Source: an uncultured delta proteobacterium (GTDB lineage: Bacteria; Desulfobacterota; Desulfobaccia; Desulfobaccales; 0-14-0-80-60-11). From it: DNA of 64,000 bases. The translations under genes were made by a program, and so were the position numbers. Numbering within the stretch: the stretch's first letter is position 1; the number at the start of each line of letters is the position of its first letter. The stretch lies in contig CAWETI010000002.1 of the NCBI GenBank assembly GCA_963812015.1, positions 832,001 to 896,000 on the forward strand, read 5' to 3'. Positions 1,981 through 51,385 of the stretch are shown here, piece after piece. The notes beneath the pieces were generated by a model. The model saw only the letters and a program-made list of their open reading frames with translations. It had not been told where the DNA came from and made no database searches.

Positions 1981-3777
1981 ATGACTGTTCCGGTGCTCCT
2001 GGCCGTGGACGACCGGCTCGACAACCTCTTCGTCCTGGAGCAGGTGGTGAGGACATATCTGCCGGAGATCAAGATGATTACCGCCGAGAGCGCCGAAACA
2101 GGTCTGCCCCTGGCGGCGGCGGAAGCCGTCGACGGCGCCCTCATCGACGTGCAGATGCCGGGCATGAACGGCATCGAGATGTGCCGCCGGCTCAAAGCCG
2201 ATCCCCGGACCGCGTCCATCCACGTCATCCTGGTGACCGCCCACCGGGCCACCTCCGAATTAAAGGCCCAGGGGCTGGACGCCGGGGCCGACGACTTCAT
2301 CACCAAGCCCATCGACAATGTCGAGCTGGCCGCCAAGCTCAGGGTCATGCTGCGCCTCAGGGCTGCGGAGCAGGCGCTGCGCCGGGAGCGGGATCACCTG
2401 GAAGACACGGTCCTGGAACGCACCAAAGCATTGCGGGACGCCGAATACCGCTACCGGACCCTGTTCCAAACTGCCGGGGATGCCATCTTCATCAACGACC
2501 TGGAAGGACGCATGCTGGAGGTTAATGATGAGGCCTGCCGCCTCCTGGGCCACACCCCGGACGAATTGTTGAAGCTTACCGTGAGCGATGTGATCTCTCC
2601 GGAATATGAAGACCGGCGGCCGGAGATCCTGAAACAACTCCAGGCCAAGGGCCACGTTGTCTTCGAGAATGAACTCGTCACCCGGGATGGGCGGATTATC
2701 CCCACCGAGTGCAACAGTCGCCTGATGGACCTCCAGGGCCGCCCCGCGGTGCTCTCCATCGCCCGGGATATCAGCGAGCGCCAGACGGCGGCGGCGGCGC
2801 TGCGGAAGAGCGAAGAACTTTATCGTTCCTTGTTTGAGAACATGCTGAACGGCTTTGCTTACTGCAAGATGCTCTTTGACCAAAATCAGCCCCAGGACTT
2901 TATCTATCTTGCCGTCAACAGTTCCTTCGAGGCATTGACCGGGTTAGAGAATGTTGTCGGGAAAAAAGTATCCGAAGTCATTCCGGGTTTAGGTGAGTCT
3001 GATCCGAATTTGTTGCAAATCTATGGCAGGGTGGCTTTGACCGGCAAACCCGAGAGGGTTGAGATCTATGTGGAAGCCTTGAAGATGTGGTTTTCGCTCT
3101 CGGTATACAGCCCTGCAAAAGACTACTTTGTGGCCGTATTTGACGTTATCACCGAACGCAAGCAGGCCGAGGAGGCTTTAAAGGAAAGCCTGGCCCGGGT
3201 GACGGAAGTCCAGTACGGCACGATTGAGGCCCTGGCCATGGTTACCGAAGCGCGGGACCCTTACACCGCCGGGCATCAGCGCCGGGTCACCCAGCTTGCC
3301 TGCGCCGTGGCCCGGGAACTCGGGCTCCCCGCTGACCGGGTGGCCGGCCTCCGGGTGATGGGATTGCTCCATGACATCGGCAAGATCAGCATTCCTGCCG
3401 AGATTCTTAGCAAACCGGGAAAATTAAGCGACACGGAATTTGCTATCATCACATCCCATGCCCAGCCCGGTTACGAGATTGTCAAAGAAATCCGGTTCCC
3501 CTGGCCGGTGGCCGAAGTTATCCTACAGCACCACGAGCGGATGGACGGTTCGGGCTATCCCCAGGGACTGACCGGCCCCGATATTATCCTGGAGGCCCGC
3601 ATTTTGGCGGTGGCCGACGTGGTGGAAGCCATGGCCTCCCATCGACCTTACCGGCCTGCTTTGAGGATTGAGTCGGCCCTGAAGGAGATTACCCAGAAAA
3701 AGGGCCTTCTCTATGATCCCGAGGTGGTGGACGCCTGCTTCAAGCTATTCACTGAGAAAGGATTTCAATTTGCTTAA
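1981..3777 (+). CDS. Response regulator with REC, two PAS and HD-GYP domains (c-di-GMP phosphodiesterase family)
   Basis: REC (LAVDD, LIDVQMP, FITKP), PAS repeats, RDPYTAGHQ, LLHDIGK, HHERMDGSGYP, ILAVADVVEAM..RPYR. Confidence 0.92.
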   Translation: MTVPVLLAVDDRLDNLFVLEQVVRTYLPEIKMITAESAETGLPLAAAEAVDGALIDVQMPGMNGIEMCRRLKADPRTASIHVILVTAHRATSELKAQGLDAGADDFITKPIDNVELAAKLRVMLRLRAAEQALRRERDHLEDTVLERTKALRDAEYRYRTLFQTAGDAIFINDLEGRMLEVNDEACRLLGHTPDELLKLTVSDVISPEYEDRRPEILKQLQAKGHVVFENELVTRDGRIIPTECNSRLMDLQGRPAVLSIARDISERQTAAAALRKSEELYRSLFENMLNGFAYCKMLFDQNQPQDFIYLAVNSSFEALTGLENVVGKKVSEVIPGLGESDPNLLQIYGRVALTGKPERVEIYVEALKMWFSLSVYSPAKDYFVAVFDVITERKQAEEALKESLARVTEVQYGTIEALAMVTEARDPYTAGHQRRVTQLACAVARELGLPADRVAGLRVMGLLHDIGKISIPAEILSKPGKLSDTEFAIITSHAQPGYEIVKEIRFPWPVAEVILQHHERMDGSGYPQGLTGPDIILEARILAVADVVEAMASHRPYRPALRIESALKEITQKKGLLYDPEVVDACFKLFTEKGFQFA

Positions 3778-44728: not shown

Positions 44729-44773
44729 GCAAAAAATAAGGGGTCAGCTTTTTCGCCAACCCCTTGAATTTTG

Positions 44774-44849
44774 TGGCTCCCCGGGACGGACTCGAACCGC
44801 CGACAAGGTGGTTAACAGCCACCCGCTCTACCAGCTGAGCTACCGGGGA
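44774..44849 (-). tRNA. tRNA-Asn(GTT)
   Basis: TCCCCGG-TAGCTCAGCTGGTAGAGC-GGGTGGCT GTT AACCACC-..GTTCGAGTCCG-TCCCGGGGAGCCA cloverleaf with encoded CCA. Confidence 0.97.
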
Positions 44850-44863
44850 TTGTGAAGGCAATT

Positions 44864-44937
44864 TGGCTGGGGGACAAGGATTCGAACCTTGATAGGCAAC
44901 TCCAGAGGCTGCAGTCCTGCCGTTAGACGATCCCCCA
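44864..44937 (-). tRNA. tRNA-Gln(CTG)
   Basis: TGGGGGATCGTCTAACGGCAGGAC-TGCAGCCT CTG GAGTTGC-..GGTTCGAATCC-TTGTCCCCCAGCCA. Confidence 0.96.
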
Positions 44938-44950
44938 ACAGCACCTATTT

Positions 44951-44979
44951 TATATACGCAGGCCCAAGAAGTTTGTCAA
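44951..44979 (-). promoter_or_regulatory. Sigma70 promoter of the tRNA pair
   Basis: TTGACA-17 nt-TATATA just upstream of tRNA-Gln. Confidence 0.75.
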
Positions 44980-45029
44980 GGGGGTCGGCGGCCTTGCCGG
45001 TCCCGGGGCGCCATCTCCGCCAGGGCCGC

Positions 45030-45154
45030 TGATGAACCCGGGCTCCTTCATAGGCCATGTCGCTCAAGAGGCTGACTACGCCCACCAGGATGATGAATTT
45101 CCAAGCCGCGGCTTTGCTAAGATATTCAGAGGCGGTTTCTGCCTTTTTGTCCAT
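45030..45154 (-). pseudogene. Truncated MFS transporter (first TM helix only)
   Basis: AWKFIILVGVVSLLSDMAYEGAR is a typical MFS N-terminus; the reading then runs into the tRNA promoter region. Confidence 0.7.
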
Positions 45155-45171
45155 AAGCCTCGGGAAAGGAT

Positions 45172-45618
45172 TCAGGTTAAAGAGCCGGCTTTGGTCAGCA
45201 ATGCCTTGATGTGGTCTAAATATTGGAGAATTCGATGGGCCTTGGGGTCAAGATAATCAACCAATTCTGGCGGCGGTTCGCCAAAACCTCCCAGATACTT
45301 GCCGGTCAGTTCCAGGACGTCCACCCAGAGAATGTAGCAATGCCCCTGTATGGTTTTGGCAATATCCTGAGAACCTGCTTCCAGGTGCAGATCATCCCGT
45401 AATTCCCGCATGATGCCGCGGATGCAGGCAATAGCGGCCAGTAATCCGGCTCGCCCATTGGGATCGAGATTATTCGTTTCGTGGTAAAGGACTGAGCGAA
45501 CTTCCCGCCCCTGGGCCCACTCCTCGAATTTAACTAAAGCTTCGTCGAGAAGGGTGAGTGTGATCCTGATTCGGCTGCGGTGTGCCTCGCTCAGGTTTGG
45601 AATAAATTCTGCCTGCAT
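45172..45618 (-). CDS. Helical hypothetical protein in the riboswitch-led operon
   Basis: Co-oriented and closely spaced with the usp gene; AGGAAG RBS. Confidence 0.75.
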   Translation of the reverse strand: MQAEFIPNLSEAHRSRIRITLTLLDEALVKFEEWAQGREVRSVLYHETNNLDPNGRAGLLAAIACIRGIMRELRDDLHLEAGSQDIAKTIQGHCYILWVDVLELTGKYLGGFGEPPPELVDYLDPKAHRILQYLDHIKALLTKAGSLT

Positions 45619-45651
45619 TTTGCAGACTTCCTGCCAACAAGTGGGGCGCTA

Positions 45652-46071
45652 TTACCGCACGATAAGAACGCTGCACGGGGCATGGCGGCTCACCTTTTCG
45701 GCGGTGGTGCCCAGTAAGGCCCAGACCCCGGAAAGGCCGCTGTGGCCCACCAGGATCAGGTCGAATTTGCCCTCCTTGGCCACCTCGAGGATGGTCTTGG
45801 CCGGGTGGCCTGGGCGCATGTGGGTTTTGAGCTCTATCCCGGCTTCTTTCGCCTTCGCTTTGGCGGCCTCCAGCAACTTGCCATATTGTTCATCGGCAAA
45901 CTGCTTTTCTTCCTTGACCTCATCGATGGTGCCGCTGAAGCGGGGCAGTTTTTCTTGCACCGCCAGGACCCAGAGTTCGGATTGATGAATTTTGGCGAGA
46001 GTAATTCCGGCATTGAGCGCCGTGTCAGCGCCCTTGGAGCCGTCGTAGGCCAAGAGTATCTTCTGAAACAT
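45652..46071 (-). CDS. Universal stress protein (Usp)
   Basis: FQKILLAYDGS, GHPAKTI, DLILVGHSG, LGTTAEKVSRHAPCSVLIVR. Confidence 0.93.
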   Translation of the reverse strand: MFQKILLAYDGSKGADTALNAGITLAKIHQSELWVLAVQEKLPRFSGTIDEVKEEKQFADEQYGKLLEAAKAKAKEAGIELKTHMRPGHPAKTILEVAKEGKFDLILVGHSGLSGVWALLGTTAEKVSRHAPCSVLIVR

Positions 46072-46112
46072 TTCTCCCTCCCATTATTGCGGTCTAATAG
46101 AACCTTGACCCA

Positions 46113-47318
46113 TTACTCCTCTGGCATATGCAGGAAATTTTCCGAACTGCCAATATAACGTAACGACTCACTTTCAAAAGATTGAGCCTCGTGGGGGTAG
46201 AACCAGATTTGCCCGATCACGGTGGGGATTACTGCCGAGCCGATTACCGCGGTCACCAGGAGGGAATACTGGGCCTGGGTCACGTATCCATAGGTTAAGC
46301 CGTAAAGGGCGGAGATGCTGCCGAAGGTGAGACCGGTGGACATCATGCAGGTGGTATAATTGACCTGCCGCACCGGCATTCGGAAGAGACGGCAGGTGGG
46401 CCACACCGCGGCAACTTTGGTAATCATTTTGGACCAAAACAAGGCGAGCAATACGCCGAATCCTGCTATCAGGGCAGGCAAGGACACCAAGGTGCCTGCC
46501 TTGAGAAAAAAGAACGGGGTCAACAGGGCGAAGACGATAGACCGCATGCGCAACATAATCGCTTTATTATGGACAAATAATCCCGCCACCACGATGCCGA
46601 AGATATAAGCCGGCAGCACGGCTTCACTCCGGGCCTTGACCGACAGGGCGCCTAAGGCGACGAGAACCAGGAAAATGAATTTGATTTCCGGTTCGCTCAC
46701 CCGGCCGCCCCACGCCGCAAAGACCCGGCGGCTGATAGCTGGCATGAAACACAGAACCACCGTGGTCACTACGATAAAAATCACTAGCCAGTAATCATAA
46801 TTGGCGAAGATCAGCCCCAGGGCCAGCACCGTGCCCAGGTCATTCACGAAGCACGCGGCCAGGATTAGTTTTCCCAGTTCCGTTTCATTCAACCCCGTTT
46901 CCACCATCACCGCGTAGACTACGGCCATGGAAGTGGTGGACAGGGCGATGCCGGCAATCTGGGCGGCTTGCAGACTCCATCCGGCGATGTAGTAAGCGTA
47001 GGCCATACAACCCAAGAAAGGAGCGAGAAAAGCCACGGTGCCGATGGTGAGGCTGGGGATCAACTGCTTGCGGAAGGTCTCGGGTTCTATTTCGGCGCCG
47101 GCCAGAAAAGTCAGGACTACCGAAGCAAAGCCCGCCAGGAAGTTGATCCAGGCATTGGGTTGGAAAATGGCGGAACCGAAGTGGGCTCCCAGGTTGCCGG
47201 CGACAAACCCCAGGAAAATTTCCACCAGGGCCACGGAGATGCCGATGCGAATGGAGATGAGACTGGCCAGGAATGCCAGGCCGATCCAGGCCGTCGCGGT
47301 GTACCAAACGTGCTCCAC
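46113..47318 (-). CDS. Cation:proton antiporter (CPA2/Na+/H+ exchanger family)
   Basis: GTG start after AGGAG; about 12 TM helices, LTFLAGAE, ALSTTSMAVV, ACFVNDLG. Confidence 0.88.
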   Translation of the reverse strand: MEHVWYTATAWIGLAFLASLISIRIGISVALVEIFLGFVAGNLGAHFGSAIFQPNAWINFLAGFASVVLTFLAGAEIEPETFRKQLIPSLTIGTVAFLAPFLGCMAYAYYIAGWSLQAAQIAGIALSTTSMAVVYAVMVETGLNETELGKLILAACFVNDLGTVLALGLIFANYDYWLVIFIVVTTVVLCFMPAISRRVFAAWGGRVSEPEIKFIFLVLVALGALSVKARSEAVLPAYIFGIVVAGLFVHNKAIMLRMRSIVFALLTPFFFLKAGTLVSLPALIAGFGVLLALFWSKMITKVAAVWPTCRLFRMPVRQVNYTTCMMSTGLTFGSISALYGLTYGYVTQAQYSLLVTAVIGSAVIPTVIGQIWFYPHEAQSFESESLRYIGSSENFLHMPEE

Positions 47319-47351
47319 TTTATGCTCCTGAAACCGGTGCGGGGTGTAAAT

Positions 47352-47390
47352 AAAAAAGGCCCTGACCCACACCCGGTGAGATCAGGAGCC
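47352..47390 (-). terminator. Intrinsic terminator, expression platform of riboswitch A
   Basis: GGCUCCUGAUCUCAC..GUGGGUCAGGGCC followed by UUUUUU; overlaps the aptamer 3' end. Confidence 0.8.
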
Positions 47391-47447
47391 ATCAGTGTCA
47401 TCACGGTTCGGGCAGACTCTCCTCCACCCCGGCGGACTCCATCGCCT
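47383..47447 (-). ncRNA. Fluoride riboswitch (crcB motif) A, upstream of the CPA2 antiporter
   Basis: AGGCGAUGGAGUCCGCC..AACCGUGAUGACACUGAUGGCUCCUG; P1 GGCG/CGCC, pseudoknot GGAGUC/GGCUCC; TTGACC-18-TAAGGT upstream (47459-47488). Confidence 0.85.
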
Positions 47448-47577
47448 AATTTTAGCTAACCTTAACTCCAGTTGTCCTGATTGGTCAAGAAAAATATGCA
47501 TAAAGCAGAATCTCTGGAGAGGTCTCTTTTAAAGTTGACATAGGGGCGGTTTGCGAGCGATAATTTATAATTAAAGA

Positions 47578-47633
47578 AGGCGATGAAGTCCGCCTTAATT
47601 GCCCACGGGTGCCAGGTGGGCTGATGACTTCTG
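47578..47633 (+). ncRNA. Fluoride riboswitch (crcB motif) B, upstream of the dynamin-like gene
   Basis: AGGCGAUGAAGUCCGCCUUAAUUGCCCAC..GUGGGCUGAUGACUUCUG; P1 GGCG/CGCC, pseudoknot GAAGUC/GACUUC; TATAAT at 47566-47571. Confidence 0.9.
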
Positions 47634-47661
47634 TCCATTTTAGGGGCAGAGGTTTTTTTTT
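47627..47661 (+). terminator. Intrinsic terminator, expression platform of riboswitch B
   Basis: acttctgtcc..gggcagaggt followed by a T run; overlaps the pseudoknot strand. Confidence 0.85.
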
Positions 47662-47681
47662 GCCCGATTTAAGGAAGATGG

Positions 47682-49436
47682 ATGGGAACCTATCGACAAT
47701 TTCAAGAAGCTTTGGAACATCAGCTCGTTCAGTTGAGCAAGTTTCCGGAACTGAAGGGGCCGCACCTGGCCAGGCTTATCGACAAGCTGCGGGAAAATCG
47801 CTTTAATTTGGTGATCCTGGGAGCTTTCAAACGGGGCAAGAGCACCCTGATCAATGCCCTCCTGGGTGAGCCGATCTTGCCGACGGCCATCGTCCCCCTG
47901 ACCTCGGTCGTCACCGTCTTGGGATACGGCGATCAACTAAATATCGAGGTCCGTTTTCAAAACGGGTCCCGGAGAAAAATCTCCCAGCCGGAATTGGTGG
48001 AATATATCACCGAGAAGGGCAATCCCCGGAATCAGAAGGGGGTGAGGGAAGTAGAGATCACCTTTCCCTCGGATTATCTAAAGGACGGGGTGAGAATCAT
48101 CGACACCCCCGGGGTAGGGTCGGTTTATAGCCACAACACCGAAGTGGCCTATAATTATCTTCCCCAGGTGGATGCGGCCGTTTTTGTGGTCTCGGTTGAC
48201 CCGCCGCTCTCCGCCGCGGAACAGGATTTCTTGAAAGACATCCGGGAATATGTCCACAAACTCTTTTTTGTGCTGAATAAAATTGATTATGTGGGCGCGG
48301 CCGAGCGCCAAGAGGCCCTGGAATTTACGGCCCAGACATTGCAAGCCAATTTGGGGACGGAAACATTGGCGATTTTCCCCCTTTCGGCCAAATTAGCGAT
48401 GGACGGCAAATCCAATGGCCATCCCGAACTCCTGGCAGCCAGTTTGCTCCCCGAGTTTGAAAATCATTTGCGCCAGTTTCTCTATAAAGAAAAAGGGCGG
48501 GTGTTGTTGATTTCTTGCCTCAGCGGCGCGCTTAAGACCATCACCGATTCGACCCTGGCCCTCAAGGTGGAACGTCAGGCCGGCGCCATGCCCCTGAAGG
48601 AATTGGAAGACAAGATCACCCGGTTCGACCAGGAATTGCAAGGCCTGGAAAAAGAACGGGAACTGTCTTTGCTGCTGCTGGATGGTCGGATCAAGGGCGT
48701 GATCACCGAAGTGGAGGCGGACCTCGACGCCTTTAAGAAAGAGACCATCATCAAATTACGCCGGAAGATGGAGGAGGCTTTCCAGCAAAAAAGCCAGGCT
48801 GCCGGAGATTTGCGCCAGGAAACGGAGGAAATCCTGTTTGCGGCGTTGCGGGACGTATTCACCACCTGGCGGCGACAGGAAATCGAGAAACTCTCCCTAA
48901 AATTGGCCGATACCCACCAGGATTTCGCCACCCGCATCAATGCCATCCTGGAGCGTTTGACCCAATTGACCGCCCGTATCTTTGACTTTTCTCTCAGGGG
49001 CTTTGCCGCGGAGGAAGCCTTCCCCGATCTGCGCCAATTCTGGTTCAAATTTAAGGATGAACCGGTGGGGCTGGAAATTCTTCAAATGACCGTGACCTCC
49101 CTCCTGCCCCGGGCCTTGACCAGAGGCTTGCTGCTCAAAAAGCTGTTGGAAAATGTCGGCGAATTGGTGGATAAGCATTGCGGGCGGCTGCGCTACGATT
49201 TCCACCAGCGGCTCCAGGAAATTGCCCGAGATTTCCGCCAGACCTGGCTCGCCAAGATCGACGACACTACGCAAAGCATCCGGCAGGCCCTGGACCGGGC
49301 TTGGTCCCAAAAACAGACCAGCGCCCAGACTACCGCCGAGAGAATGGGTCAGCTTGATCAAAGCTTGACCGAAATCCTCCAGGCCGAATCGCAATTATTG
49401 GCCTTGAAGGAGCAGATTGAGGAAACCTTACAGTGA
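47682..49436 (+). CDS. Bacterial dynamin-like GTPase
   Basis: G1 GAFKRGKSTLINALLG, G2 LPTAIVPLTS, G3 IDTPG, G4 LNKID, long helical C-terminus. Confidence 0.92.
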   Translation: MGTYRQFQEALEHQLVQLSKFPELKGPHLARLIDKLRENRFNLVILGAFKRGKSTLINALLGEPILPTAIVPLTSVVTVLGYGDQLNIEVRFQNGSRRKISQPELVEYITEKGNPRNQKGVREVEITFPSDYLKDGVRIIDTPGVGSVYSHNTEVAYNYLPQVDAAVFVVSVDPPLSAAEQDFLKDIREYVHKLFFVLNKIDYVGAAERQEALEFTAQTLQANLGTETLAIFPLSAKLAMDGKSNGHPELLAASLLPEFENHLRQFLYKEKGRVLLISCLSGALKTITDSTLALKVERQAGAMPLKELEDKITRFDQELQGLEKERELSLLLLDGRIKGVITEVEADLDAFKKETIIKLRRKMEEAFQQKSQAAGDLRQETEEILFAALRDVFTTWRRQEIEKLSLKLADTHQDFATRINAILERLTQLTARIFDFSLRGFAAEEAFPDLRQFWFKFKDEPVGLEILQMTVTSLLPRALTRGLLLKKLLENVGELVDKHCGRLRYDFHQRLQEIARDFRQTWLAKIDDTTQSIRQALDRAWSQKQTSAQTTAERMGQLDQSLTEILQAESQLLALKEQIEETLQ

Positions 49437-49553: not shown

Positions 49554-49838
49554 ATGAAAGATTTTGATGAGGTTACCCGGGAAAAGGGCCTGCCCCGTGT
49601 GGGGCAGGAGGTGCGCAGCAAAAAATACGGCACGGTGTGGCGAGTCATGGAGAAAAAAGAGGTGTGGACCAATATCGAACCAGACCCCCAGACCGGCGAG
49701 ACCCGCATGCTCCCGGCTATTTATCTTTCATATTGGCAGGTCAAGGAAGGGGTGCGACCCGGCGTGGGGAAGATGATGGGCTTTGAATATACTCTCTATG
49801 ACAATACCTTTAGCGTCAATTGGGATATCGTGGAATGA
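49554..49838 (+). CDS. Small hypothetical protein
   Basis: TAAGGAGG RBS, TTGACA upstream (49491), natural composition. Confidence 0.75.
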   Translation: MKDFDEVTREKGLPRVGQEVRSKKYGTVWRVMEKKEVWTNIEPDPQTGETRMLPAIYLSYWQVKEGVRPGVGKMMGFEYTLYDNTFSVNWDIVE

Positions 49839-49965
49839 ATCGCCCTTTTCAACAATAGTCTCAGGTATTATAGTAGGGGCCAAGGCTTATGCTGGCGGCC
49901 CCTTTTTTATGGAAAAATCAGCTGGATGAGCATCACCGCCATACCCTGCGGGAGGAAGACCACCT

Positions 49966-50601
49966 ATGACTGGAATTATTCTGGTGCGCCACGGCCAAAC
50001 CCCCTGGAACCTGGACAAGATTTTTCGGGGCTCCAAGGACATTCCCTTGAACGACCAGGGCCGGGAAGAGGCCCGGCTGGCGGGGGAGTTTCTTAAGGGG
50101 GAGACCATTCATGCGGCCTACACCTCCCCGCTGTCCCGGGCCCGGGACACGGGGGAGGCCATCGCCCGGCATCACCATCTACCGGTCGCGGACCTGCCGG
50201 GGCTCACCGACCTGTGCTACGGCGATTGGGAGGGCCTGCCCCTGGCGGAGGTCAAGGTCGCGTACGCCGACCTCTACCGCCGGTGGGAAGCGGCGCCGGC
50301 CACCGTCCGGTTCCCCAACGGCGAAACTCTGGACGAGGTGAAGGCCCGGGCCCTGGAGGCGGTGGAGGAGGTGCTGCGGCGCCACCCCGGCCAAATTGTC
50401 CTGCTGGCGGCCCACCGGGCGGTGAACAAGGTGCTCATTGCGGCTTTTATCGGCCTGGACAACTCGCACTTCTGGCGCATCGGCCAGGATACCACCGCGG
50501 TTAATCACTTTAACCGGGTGGGGGAAACCTGGCATATCATGGGGGTCAACGACACCTGCCACCTCCGGGGCCTCAAACGGGGGGAGTACGTGGATTTTTA
50601 G
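49966..50601 (+). CDS. Histidine phosphatase (phosphoglycerate mutase family)
   Basis: LVRHGQT, SPLSRARDT, YGDWEG, PNGET, AAH. Confidence 0.92.
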   Translation: MTGIILVRHGQTPWNLDKIFRGSKDIPLNDQGREEARLAGEFLKGETIHAAYTSPLSRARDTGEAIARHHHLPVADLPGLTDLCYGDWEGLPLAEVKVAYADLYRRWEAAPATVRFPNGETLDEVKARALEAVEEVLRRHPGQIVLLAAHRAVNKVLIAAFIGLDNSHFWRIGQDTTAVNHFNRVGETWHIMGVNDTCHLRGLKRGEYVDF

Positions 50602-50866: not shown

Positions 50867-51385
50867 ATGGAGAAATACAAAGAGCAGAAATGGAGCGGGC
50901 AGAAAGGCAAGAAGTTCGGCCACGCCGGGCGGCAGGAAGATTCCTATGAGCCCGAGGCAGGCCAGGAAGCCGCCCTCTGCACCCAATGCCGCGCTCTCTA
51001 CCAGGGCAAGCGCTGGTTTTTCGACCCGGAGCTCCGTGGACGCCTGGCCGGCACCGACAAGGTGCGGGAGGTGGTGTGCCCCACCTGCCGCAAGATCAAC
51101 GACCACTTTCCTGAGGGCATTCTCACCCTGGCCGGCGAGTTTTTTGGCCACCATAAAGAGGAGATCGTCAGGCTCATGGAAAAAGAGGCCACCCGGGTGG
51201 TGGGCCGCAGTGTCGCTGATCGGATCATTCGGATGGTCCCCGAAGGCGACAAGCTGGTGGTGGAGACCACCACGGAAAAAATGGCCCAGCACCTGGGCCG
51301 CACCGTTTACAAGGCGTATAAGGGCGACCTGCACTTCCGCTGGGGTGAGGTGGAGCGGTTCGTCCGGGTGAACTGGAGCCGGTAG
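50867..51385 (+). CDS. BCAM0308-family / NMD3-like zinc-binding protein
   Basis: CTQC..GKRW..CPTCRKINDHFPEG, VVETTTEKMAQHLG, RVNWSR. Confidence 0.75.
   Translation: MEKYKEQKWSGQKGKKFGHAGRQEDSYEPEAGQEAALCTQCRALYQGKRWFFDPELRGRLAGTDKVREVVCPTCRKINDHFPEGILTLAGEFFGHHKEEIVRLMEKEATRVVGRSVADRIIRMVPEGDKLVVETTTEKMAQHLGRTVYKAYKGDLHFRWGEVERFVRVNWSR

Follow-up and report, generated by a model that had tools for sequence, protein, structure and literature searches.

The 64-kb stretch of DNA analysed here (the window, meaning the whole stretch; all coordinates are window positions) belongs to an uncultured bacterium of the order Desulfobaccales and carries, in a single intergenic region, two fluoride riboswitches that face away from each other. 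Both RNA elements are confirmed, at the level of sequence, as genuine and ordinary members of the known crcB/fluoride riboswitch class. Our overall explanation, to which we assign a probability of about 0.88, is that these two divergent fluoride switches act by antitermination and drive two gene units, one headed by a Na+/H+ exchanger on the minus strand and the other by a dynamin-like GTPase on the plus strand. It is based on the RNA family match, the covariation of the pseudoknot, the overlap of the aptamers with terminators, and the conserved pairing and gene linkage, all of which were observed. The conserved divergent wiring, the equally conserved dynamin output accompanied by two orphan proteins, and the apparent absence of any known fluoride exporter lift the finding above routine.

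A search of the whole window with the Rfam models (cmscan) returned two matches to RF01734, each covering model positions 1-64 of 64 and each above the gathering score of 34 bits. The plus-arm aptamer lies at 47570-47640 (+; 48.3 bits, E 2.5e-10) and the minus-arm aptamer at 47376-47455 (-; 38.8 bits, E 3.2e-7). A sequence-only reading of the region had proposed a fluoride riboswitch on each strand, and this Infernal result on both strands bears it out. Apart from these, Rfam matched only two tRNAs in the window, in which ARAGORN concurs, and the two aptamers are the only RF01734 copies in the genome (3.96 Mb, 6 contigs, 99.86% complete). The motif GGCGATGRAGTCCGCC-N20-50-CTGATGRCTYCTG, on which that reading had relied, occurred exactly twice in the window, once per strand, at 47383-47446 (-) and 47579-47633 (+), and never in 100 dinucleotide-preserving shuffles. 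In both copies, a P1 stem (GGCG/CGCC) closes the loop AUGRAGUC, six bases of which are able to pair with the 3' tail, and the consensus alignment shows the conserved unpaired core (loop GAUG, AACC-type linker, CUGAUG junction) in both. The resulting pseudoknot joins GAAGUC with GACUUC in the plus copy (core GAAG/CUUC) and GGAGUC with GGCUCC, one G-U pair included, in the minus copy (core GGAG/CUCC); the compensatory difference that had been claimed between the two strands is present in the sequence as well as in the alignment. The two copies belong to different sub-types. The plus copy is 71 nt long with a long (6-bp) P2, and the minus copy is 80 nt long with an extra stem: 22 nt inserted between P1 and the AACC linker form a 7-bp hairpin (47409-47429), which explains the lower RF01734 score of this copy. 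We rejected the extra stem as a new structural variant, as an optional insert of '0-48 nt (has stem when > 12 nt)', found in 31% of representatives, is already given in the supplementary figure text of Weinberg 2010. The idea that the pair arose by recent inverted duplication was also unsupported, the copies being of different sub-types and each having its own orthologues in relatives.

Each aptamer merges into an intrinsic terminator. In the plus leader, the terminator (47626-47661, +), detected by both the terminator scan and folding, consists of an 11-bp hairpin at 47626-47654 and a nine-T run at 47653-47661 (-18.3 kcal/mol, z -3.2). In the minus leader, the terminator (47352-47390, -), detected by folding only, consists of a hairpin at 47358-47390 and a U6 tract at 47352-47357 (-19.1 kcal/mol, z -2.4); the simple terminator scan missed it because the hairpin has a bulge. 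The first six bases of each terminator hairpin are also the 3' strand of the corresponding pseudoknot, at 47626-47631 in the plus leader and at 47385-47390 in the minus leader. The earlier statement that each aptamer overlaps a U-tailed terminator holds in both arms, and the span to which it had referred, 47352-47661, runs exactly from U tract to U tract.

The same architecture was found in related bacteria. Our survey comprised 41 genomes, including that of the window, from the clade Desulfobaccales (phylum Thermodesulfobacteriota), and RF01734 matches were present in 24 of them, with 62 matches at or above threshold. In an alignment of 49 related aptamers, P1 was paired in 100% and the pseudoknot in 99.3% of cases, and 8 of 14 base pairs changed on both sides. 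Three of the six pseudoknot pairs did so, with A-U to G-C changes at two positions, which gives covariation support to the pseudoknot first drawn from the window sequence. The covariation score was reached by none of 500 shuffles, and all slid controls were far lower. A hairpin with a run of at least five T followed within 45 nt downstream of 64 of 65 distinct related aptamers (four others were left out of this set, two without downstream DNA, one partial match and one duplicate), so the terminator-type ON design is the rule in this clade. Divergent pairs were also common: we counted 18 in 14 of the 41 genomes, together holding 36 of the 62 riboswitch matches, with spacers between aptamer 5' ends of 72 to 242 nt (median 101.5). 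Pfam analysis of 126 ORFs behind the riboswitches of relatives revealed genes for CrcB, DUF190-CBS, Na_H_Exchanger, Usp, MFS and enolase, sets in the order Na_H_Exchanger-Usp-orphan-MFS, formate-tetrahydrofolate ligase (FTHFS), hydrogenase/complex-I-like proteins, H+-pyrophosphatase and, repeatedly, a dynamin-like GTPase. Most such partner genes are on published lists of fluoride-riboswitch genes (Weinberg 2010, main text; review PMC11139923).

From this anatomy and the conserved gene linkage, we infer fluoride binding and antitermination in vivo, as well as the operon limits and gene roles described below. Two independent crcB-class riboswitches would be transcribed outward from two back-to-back sigma-70-type promoters. 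Without fluoride, each leader of approximately 90-100 nt would fold its terminator hairpin followed by the U tract, the 5' arm of the hairpin using up the 3' strand of the aptamer pseudoknot, and transcription would stop before the first gene. The fluoride riboswitch class binds fluoride as a Mg2+-fluoride cluster. With this ligand in place, the pseudoknot would be held, the terminator blocked, and the polymerase could read through. The minus switch would control a CPA-type Na+/H+ exchanger, a universal stress protein (Usp) and a 148-aa orphan protein, and the plus switch a BDLP/IniA-like dynamin GTPase and a 94-aa orphan protein. The ON switch by antitermination put forward in the sequence-only reading fits this anatomy, with a terminator 5' arm that starts with the pseudoknot 3' strand in both arms. 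Translational control may operate in some fluoride riboswitches, and the two switches could likewise work by hiding the ribosome-binding site rather than by termination. We regard this as very improbable here, since the ribosome-binding sites AGGAG (47325-47329, -) and AAGGAAG (47671-47677, +) are both located past the U tracts and outside the switching helices, and since hairpin-plus-U-run platforms follow nearly all of the related aptamers, as noted above.

The two aptamers are separated by 114 nt, which would serve as a promoter spacer. A putative plus-arm promoter was predicted at 47535-47564 (+), with TTGACA, an 18-nt spacer and GATAAT (11 of 12 consensus matches), and a putative minus-arm promoter was read from the sequence at 47459-47488 (-), with TTGACC at -35 (47483-47488), an 18-nt spacer and TAAGGT at -10 (47459-47464). 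Both are consensus-level predictions; the predicted -35 boxes of these back-to-back sigma-70-type promoters are 46 bp apart. Among eight aligned spacers from relatives, TTGACA was invariant (8/8) and GTCAAG, read on the plus strand, was kept in seven, while the remainder drifts. The promoter scan had placed the minus-arm promoter elsewhere, at a weaker site that would intrude on P1. Small palindromes noticed by eye in the alignment between the -35 boxes were discarded as a regulatory element, since no inverted repeat of at least 8 nt was found in any of five spacers. Eight runs of wetland metatranscriptomes cover small shares of the stretch (0.05-0.12). The four runs that were aligned gave short contigs with 95-99% likeness, indicating that they come from relatives; DNA carry-over is possible, and transcript ends and levels are unreadable from contigs. 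Pieces were found on the minus leader (run X4 at 47352-47416 and 47387-47449; run X1 at 47349-47429, beyond which its sequence no longer resembles the window) and over portions of the GTPase gene. The U tract is the stopping point of a single run, stretches lacking coverage carry no information, and we concluded nothing from these data.

The minus-arm riboswitch precedes genes for the exchanger and Usp. The first gene (46113-47318, -) encodes a 401-aa Na+/H+ exchanger family transporter of the CPA type (PF00999, E 3.1e-29). Its GTG start at 47318 is six bases past AGGAG; the PF00999 scan began at 47324, two residues longer, and related exchangers measure 393 to 401 aa. It is followed, after a gap of 41 nt, by the gene for a 139-aa Usp (45652-46071, -; PF00582, E 1.9e-30) and, after another 33 nt, by that for the 148-aa orphan (45172-45618, -). 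Usp genes are reportedly linked to fluoride riboswitches elsewhere. The orphan is all-helical-looking, has no Pfam or NCBIfam match, and is 76-81% identical in three relatives, where it occupies the same operon position; its neighbours in the Atlas are unnamed clusters only, from several phyla. In relatives, a full MFS transporter gene ends this exchanger-Usp-orphan operon. The window holds a 69-aa ORF at that place (44945-45154, -), in which tblastn with the MFS proteins of three relatives recovered residues 1-45 (73% identity, E 5.8e-15), everything beyond them being gone, and the MFS gene looks largely deleted. A 12-residue piece at 44994-45029 may match MFS residues 328-339 (E 0.3). Directly downstream of the operon and on the same strand are tRNA-Gln(CTG) and tRNA-Asn(GTT) (44774-44937, -, and 44738-44765, -); no convincing terminator was seen between the operon and the tRNAs, and a strong one was found only after tRNA-Asn.

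Na+/H+ antiporters are given as the second commonest riboswitch-linked genes in PMC11139923, where pyrophosphatase, enolase and formate hydrogen lyase are listed too and where the rationale offered for antiporters is the defence of internal pH against hydrogen fluoride (HF). The minus arm therefore has an output already known for this class, whereas the gene family headed by the plus arm is absent from that list. The exchanger would most likely offset the proton loading caused by HF, or else reduce the pH gradient by which fluoride is trapped; where no exporter exists, such a reduction would be expected to lessen this trapping. The extra-stem sub-type represented by the minus copy recurs before Na_H_Exchanger genes in relatives, and its insert of 15 to 23 nt forms a hairpin in all but one of 24 copies, the stems having 19 different sequences. 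Such a distinct and recurrent sub-type, with its GGAG/CUCC pseudoknot, could be taken to sense a ligand other than fluoride, a shift of specificity having occurred in certain sub-classes of riboswitches. This we hold to be extremely unlikely: the optional insert is part of the original motif description (Weinberg 2010, supplement), the conserved core letters are unchanged, and Na+/H+ antiporters are, according to the review, a classical output of fluoride riboswitches.

Fluoride loci show signs of decay in two relatives. In one (L049:282-2601; G031:C41), the GTPase ORF is cut to 268 aa and followed by an IS605 OrfB-type transposase. In the other (L039; G035:C2), the GTPase ORF beside a riboswitch pair is cut to 283 aa and the CrcB frame contains three stops. 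Such truncated GTPase ORFs and interrupted CrcB frames, the MFS remnant at the end of the minus operon, and the modest score and short last stem of the minus copy could together suggest that one or both aptamers of the window are decaying relics or chance look-alikes, with genes expressed independently of fluoride. Both copies nevertheless keep the strongly conserved consensus positions, an intact pseudoknot and an overlapping terminator, their orthologues keep the same design with compensatory changes, and the chance expectation of the motif is 0, all of which makes this explanation very improbable.

The first gene of the plus arm (47682-49436, +), with AAGGAAG as its upstream ribosome-binding site, encodes a 584-aa dynamin-like GTPase of the BDLP/IniA class. 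Its G domain matches Dynamin_N (PF00350, E 9.6e-28), and residues G47-K53, D141-G144, N199, K200 and D202 are invariant in 24 family members; the P-loop GxFKRGKS (GKS), DTPG and NKxD motifs are intact. A profile of the family searched against the PDB matched Nostoc BDLP (2j68) with an E-value of 1e-44 over residues 25-430 and Mycobacterium IniA (6j72) with an E-value of 1.6e-30, as well as the Campylobacter DLP pair. The AF2 model (pLDDT 78.3) predicts a G domain continued by an extended stalk, with long helices over residues 256-583. When this model was used as a Foldseek query, the top ranks went to IniA (E 6.5e-25) and BDLP (E 1.7e-23), at 15-23% identity to the solved structures. IniA is stress-inducible and is a precedent for a dynamin as a stress effector. 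The GTPase of the window is most likely, like IniA and DynA, a stress-induced protein for membrane remodelling or repair. A second Dynamin_N gene is present elsewhere in the genome and has no riboswitch, which makes the riboswitch-controlled GTPase a dedicated paralogue.

Behind the GTPase gene lies that of the 94-aa orphan (49554-49838, +), probably co-transcribed with it. The orphan protein is 67-73% identical in six relatives, belongs to no Pfam family and retrieved only unnamed clusters from the Atlas. Its gene is itself riboswitch-linked, because in two relatives (L036:6272-6556 and L048:3907-4191) it stands directly behind a separate fluoride riboswitch of its own, before a gene for formate-tetrahydrofolate ligase. 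A terminator-like hairpin with a U6 tract at 49875-49908 (+; fold of -19.3 kcal/mol, z -1.7), weak when taken alone, marks the probable end of the unit. The plus unit thus probably continues beyond 49436, through the 94-aa ORF and up to this hairpin. The sequence-only reading had proposed the whole block 45030-49436 as a fluoride-induced regulon. A fluoride-induced block remains a reasonable inference; its limits have to be redrawn, the minus unit extending to 45172 plus the MFS remnant and the plus unit probably past 49436. Beyond the hairpin, which separates it from the plus unit, is a His_Phos_1 gene (phosphoglycerate mutase or phosphatase-like; 49966-50601, +). In many relatives a His_Phos_1 gene also comes after the GTPase and 94-aa genes, and in one of them (L038) enolase is next. 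Further downstream, a 172-aa protein (50867-51385, +) has a match to the NCBIfam family BCAM0308 (E 7e-38), whose function is not known.

The linkage between the GTPase and the riboswitch was then evaluated in three sets of loci. The close set included 19 GTPase relatives in species genomes, 18 of them with upstream DNA. At 74-87% identity to the GTPase of the window, 17 of these 18 loci had a same-strand RF01734 match above threshold directly upstream, and the 18th had a partial, sub-threshold match only. In a phylum-wide sample, the GTPase family was found in 52 of 301 genomes, and 25 of the 29 best loci (window excluded) had a same-strand riboswitch 20 to 460 nt upstream of the GTPase gene, comprising all six from the order and 19 of 23 from 11 other families, at 31-47% identity. 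Finally, metagenome contigs with DNA upstream of the GTPase gene were searched with a model built from the 49 related aptamers; 50 of 75 loci had a riboswitch within 500 nt upstream, namely 12 of 12 where the GTPase was at least 70% identical and 38 of 63 below 70%. With no more than two to seven such riboswitches per genome, adjacency by chance is negligible. One locus (L070) has two same-strand riboswitches 360 nt apart before the GTPase gene, at 2459-2528 and 2888-2958 (+), the first of which scores 34.4 bits, barely above threshold. We found no publication linking dynamins to fluoride riboswitches in the literature searched; Baker 2012 and its supplements were outside this search and may list the GTPase. 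The word 'dynamin' has no occurrence in eight supplements of Weinberg 2010, and 'GTPase' does not occur in the review PMC11139923.

It is possible that the switches are real and that the GTPase is simply a fluoride-sensitive enzyme that is locked by fluoride-metal complexes acting as gamma-phosphate mimics and is over-made under fluoride in compensation, as is commonly argued for enolase and pyrophosphatase under riboswitch control. GTPases, dynamins included, are indeed trapped by GDP-fluoride-metal complexes. In the relative L038, the GTPase gene clusters with genes for enolase and the His_Phos_1 phosphatase/mutase, and the compensation of inhibited enzymes is the rationale given for riboswitch-linked enolase and phosphatases in PMC11139923. 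We consider this explanation rather unlikely, although far from negligible. The second Dynamin_N gene of the genome has no riboswitch, a terminator-type ON switch implies a low basal expression, which would suit a dedicated stress paralogue more than a housekeeping enzyme, and the closest structures, IniA and BDLP, are those of membrane-remodelling proteins. A dedicated membrane-remodelling GTPase under fluoride control is thus the explanation that we prefer.

Several results weigh against the overall explanation or its parts. For the RNAs, the plus copy has AAUU at the consensus AACC, the rest of its core being kept, and the minus copy is just 4.8 bits over threshold, with a last stem of 3 bp (GUG/CAC). 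Folded as a whole, the minus leader does not stand out (z -0.7), and the simple scans of the sequence were not enriched compared to shuffles (promoters, 4 vs. 3.4; terminators, 6 vs. 7.9). The operon limits were drawn from short gaps and weak hairpins. In the GTPase, the membrane-binding tip corresponds only to a low-confidence region of the model (residues 439-479, pLDDT 31-46), which contains the aromatic-basic stretch FWFKFK. Four of the 23 distant loci had no riboswitch (E 0.05, within 1.5 kb upstream of the GTPase gene), and neither did 25 of the 75 metagenome loci in their available upstream DNA. Seven of these 25 (L166, L170, L173, L174, L176, L179 and L183) count on the side of the linkage: in them the GTPase gene follows, on the same strand, an Na_H_Exchanger gene truncated by the locus end, and both arms of the window are joined in one cluster, in the order NaH-Usp-GTPase in six and NaH-GTPase-Usp in L179. 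The GTPase was not found in two genomes of the same genus (G001 and G005) at an E-value of 1e-20. Moreover, the relatives share ancestry and some loci are the same records across sets, which means that the counts overstate independence and are not statistics.

The genome of the window seems, from its sequence, to have no known fluoride exporter. No match to CrcB (PF02537) was obtained in the six frames of this 99.86%-complete genome, and the same search gave matches in 11 of 14 genomes used as a control. Two ClC loci are present, with GKEGP and with none of the three CLC-F signatures. These are GNNLI/GMGLI, GREGT/V and GEVTP, as given in PMC11139923. One of the ClC genes (G000:C3:805496-806522; L004 and L005) matches the Pfam model in two frames, of 360 aa and 258 aa, which points to a frameshift or a fault in the assembly. 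Of the 41 genomes, 12 yielded CrcB; among the 24 others of the same family it turned up in only three, although several of those lacking it carry four to seven riboswitches. Its absence from draft genomes is no proof; the present assembly, with six contigs, is nearly complete. We tentatively propose that the GTPase and the 94-aa and 148-aa orphans belong to an exporter-independent branch of the fluoride response and that the two units are the whole dedicated defence. If this were true, tolerance would come through management of the pH gradient and the membrane instead of fluoride pumping. Alternatively, the CPA-type transporter may itself be an unrecognised fluoride exporter.

Fluoride resistance is usually explained by two exporter families and by extra copies of inhibited enzymes. 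Here, a riboswitch of undoubted ligand class points at a bacterial dynamin, a class of proteins with mostly unknown roles in bacteria, and the link recurs consistently in numerous families of a single phylum as well as in metagenomes. It provides, for a bacterial dynamin, a simple inducer (NaF) and a well-defined phenotype to look for, and it raises a concrete question: how does a bacterium without CrcB or CLC-F cope with fluoride?

The comparison with known systems places the pair within a familiar class. The two aptamers share with the crcB motif (RF01734; Weinberg 2010; Baker 2012) the P1 stem with its GAUGRAGU loop, the pseudoknot to the 3' tail, the CUGAUG junction, the overlapping intrinsic terminator, and the position in 5' leaders before fluoride-related genes such as those for Na+/H+ antiporters. 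They differ from it in that the two copies face apart across a 114-nt promoter spacer, the commonest arrangement in the order Desulfobaccales, and in that neither copy controls a fluoride exporter, one of them controlling a dynamin-like GTPase instead. Tandem riboswitches, such as those for glycine, have two aptamers in one leader. The window pair resembles them in having two aptamers of the same ligand class within approximately 300 nt, whereas its members are on opposite strands, with separate transcripts, promoters and terminators, and consequently have no cooperative or two-input logic in one RNA. Like BDLP (2j68/2j69), IniA (6j72) and Campylobacter DLP1/2 (5owv), the GTPase has an intact Dynamin_N G domain followed by a long helical stalk. 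It differs from these solved bacterial dynamins in its low identity (15-23%), its length of 584 aa, shorter than BDLP, its tip without a confident model and, above all, its control by a fluoride riboswitch, which is described for none of the known ones in the literature searched. Compared to the classical defence by Fluc/CrcB or CLC-F, the genome of the window shows neither exporter, whereas relatives of a second family put CrcB first in the arm opposite the GTPase (L037, L040, L041, L044 and L045).

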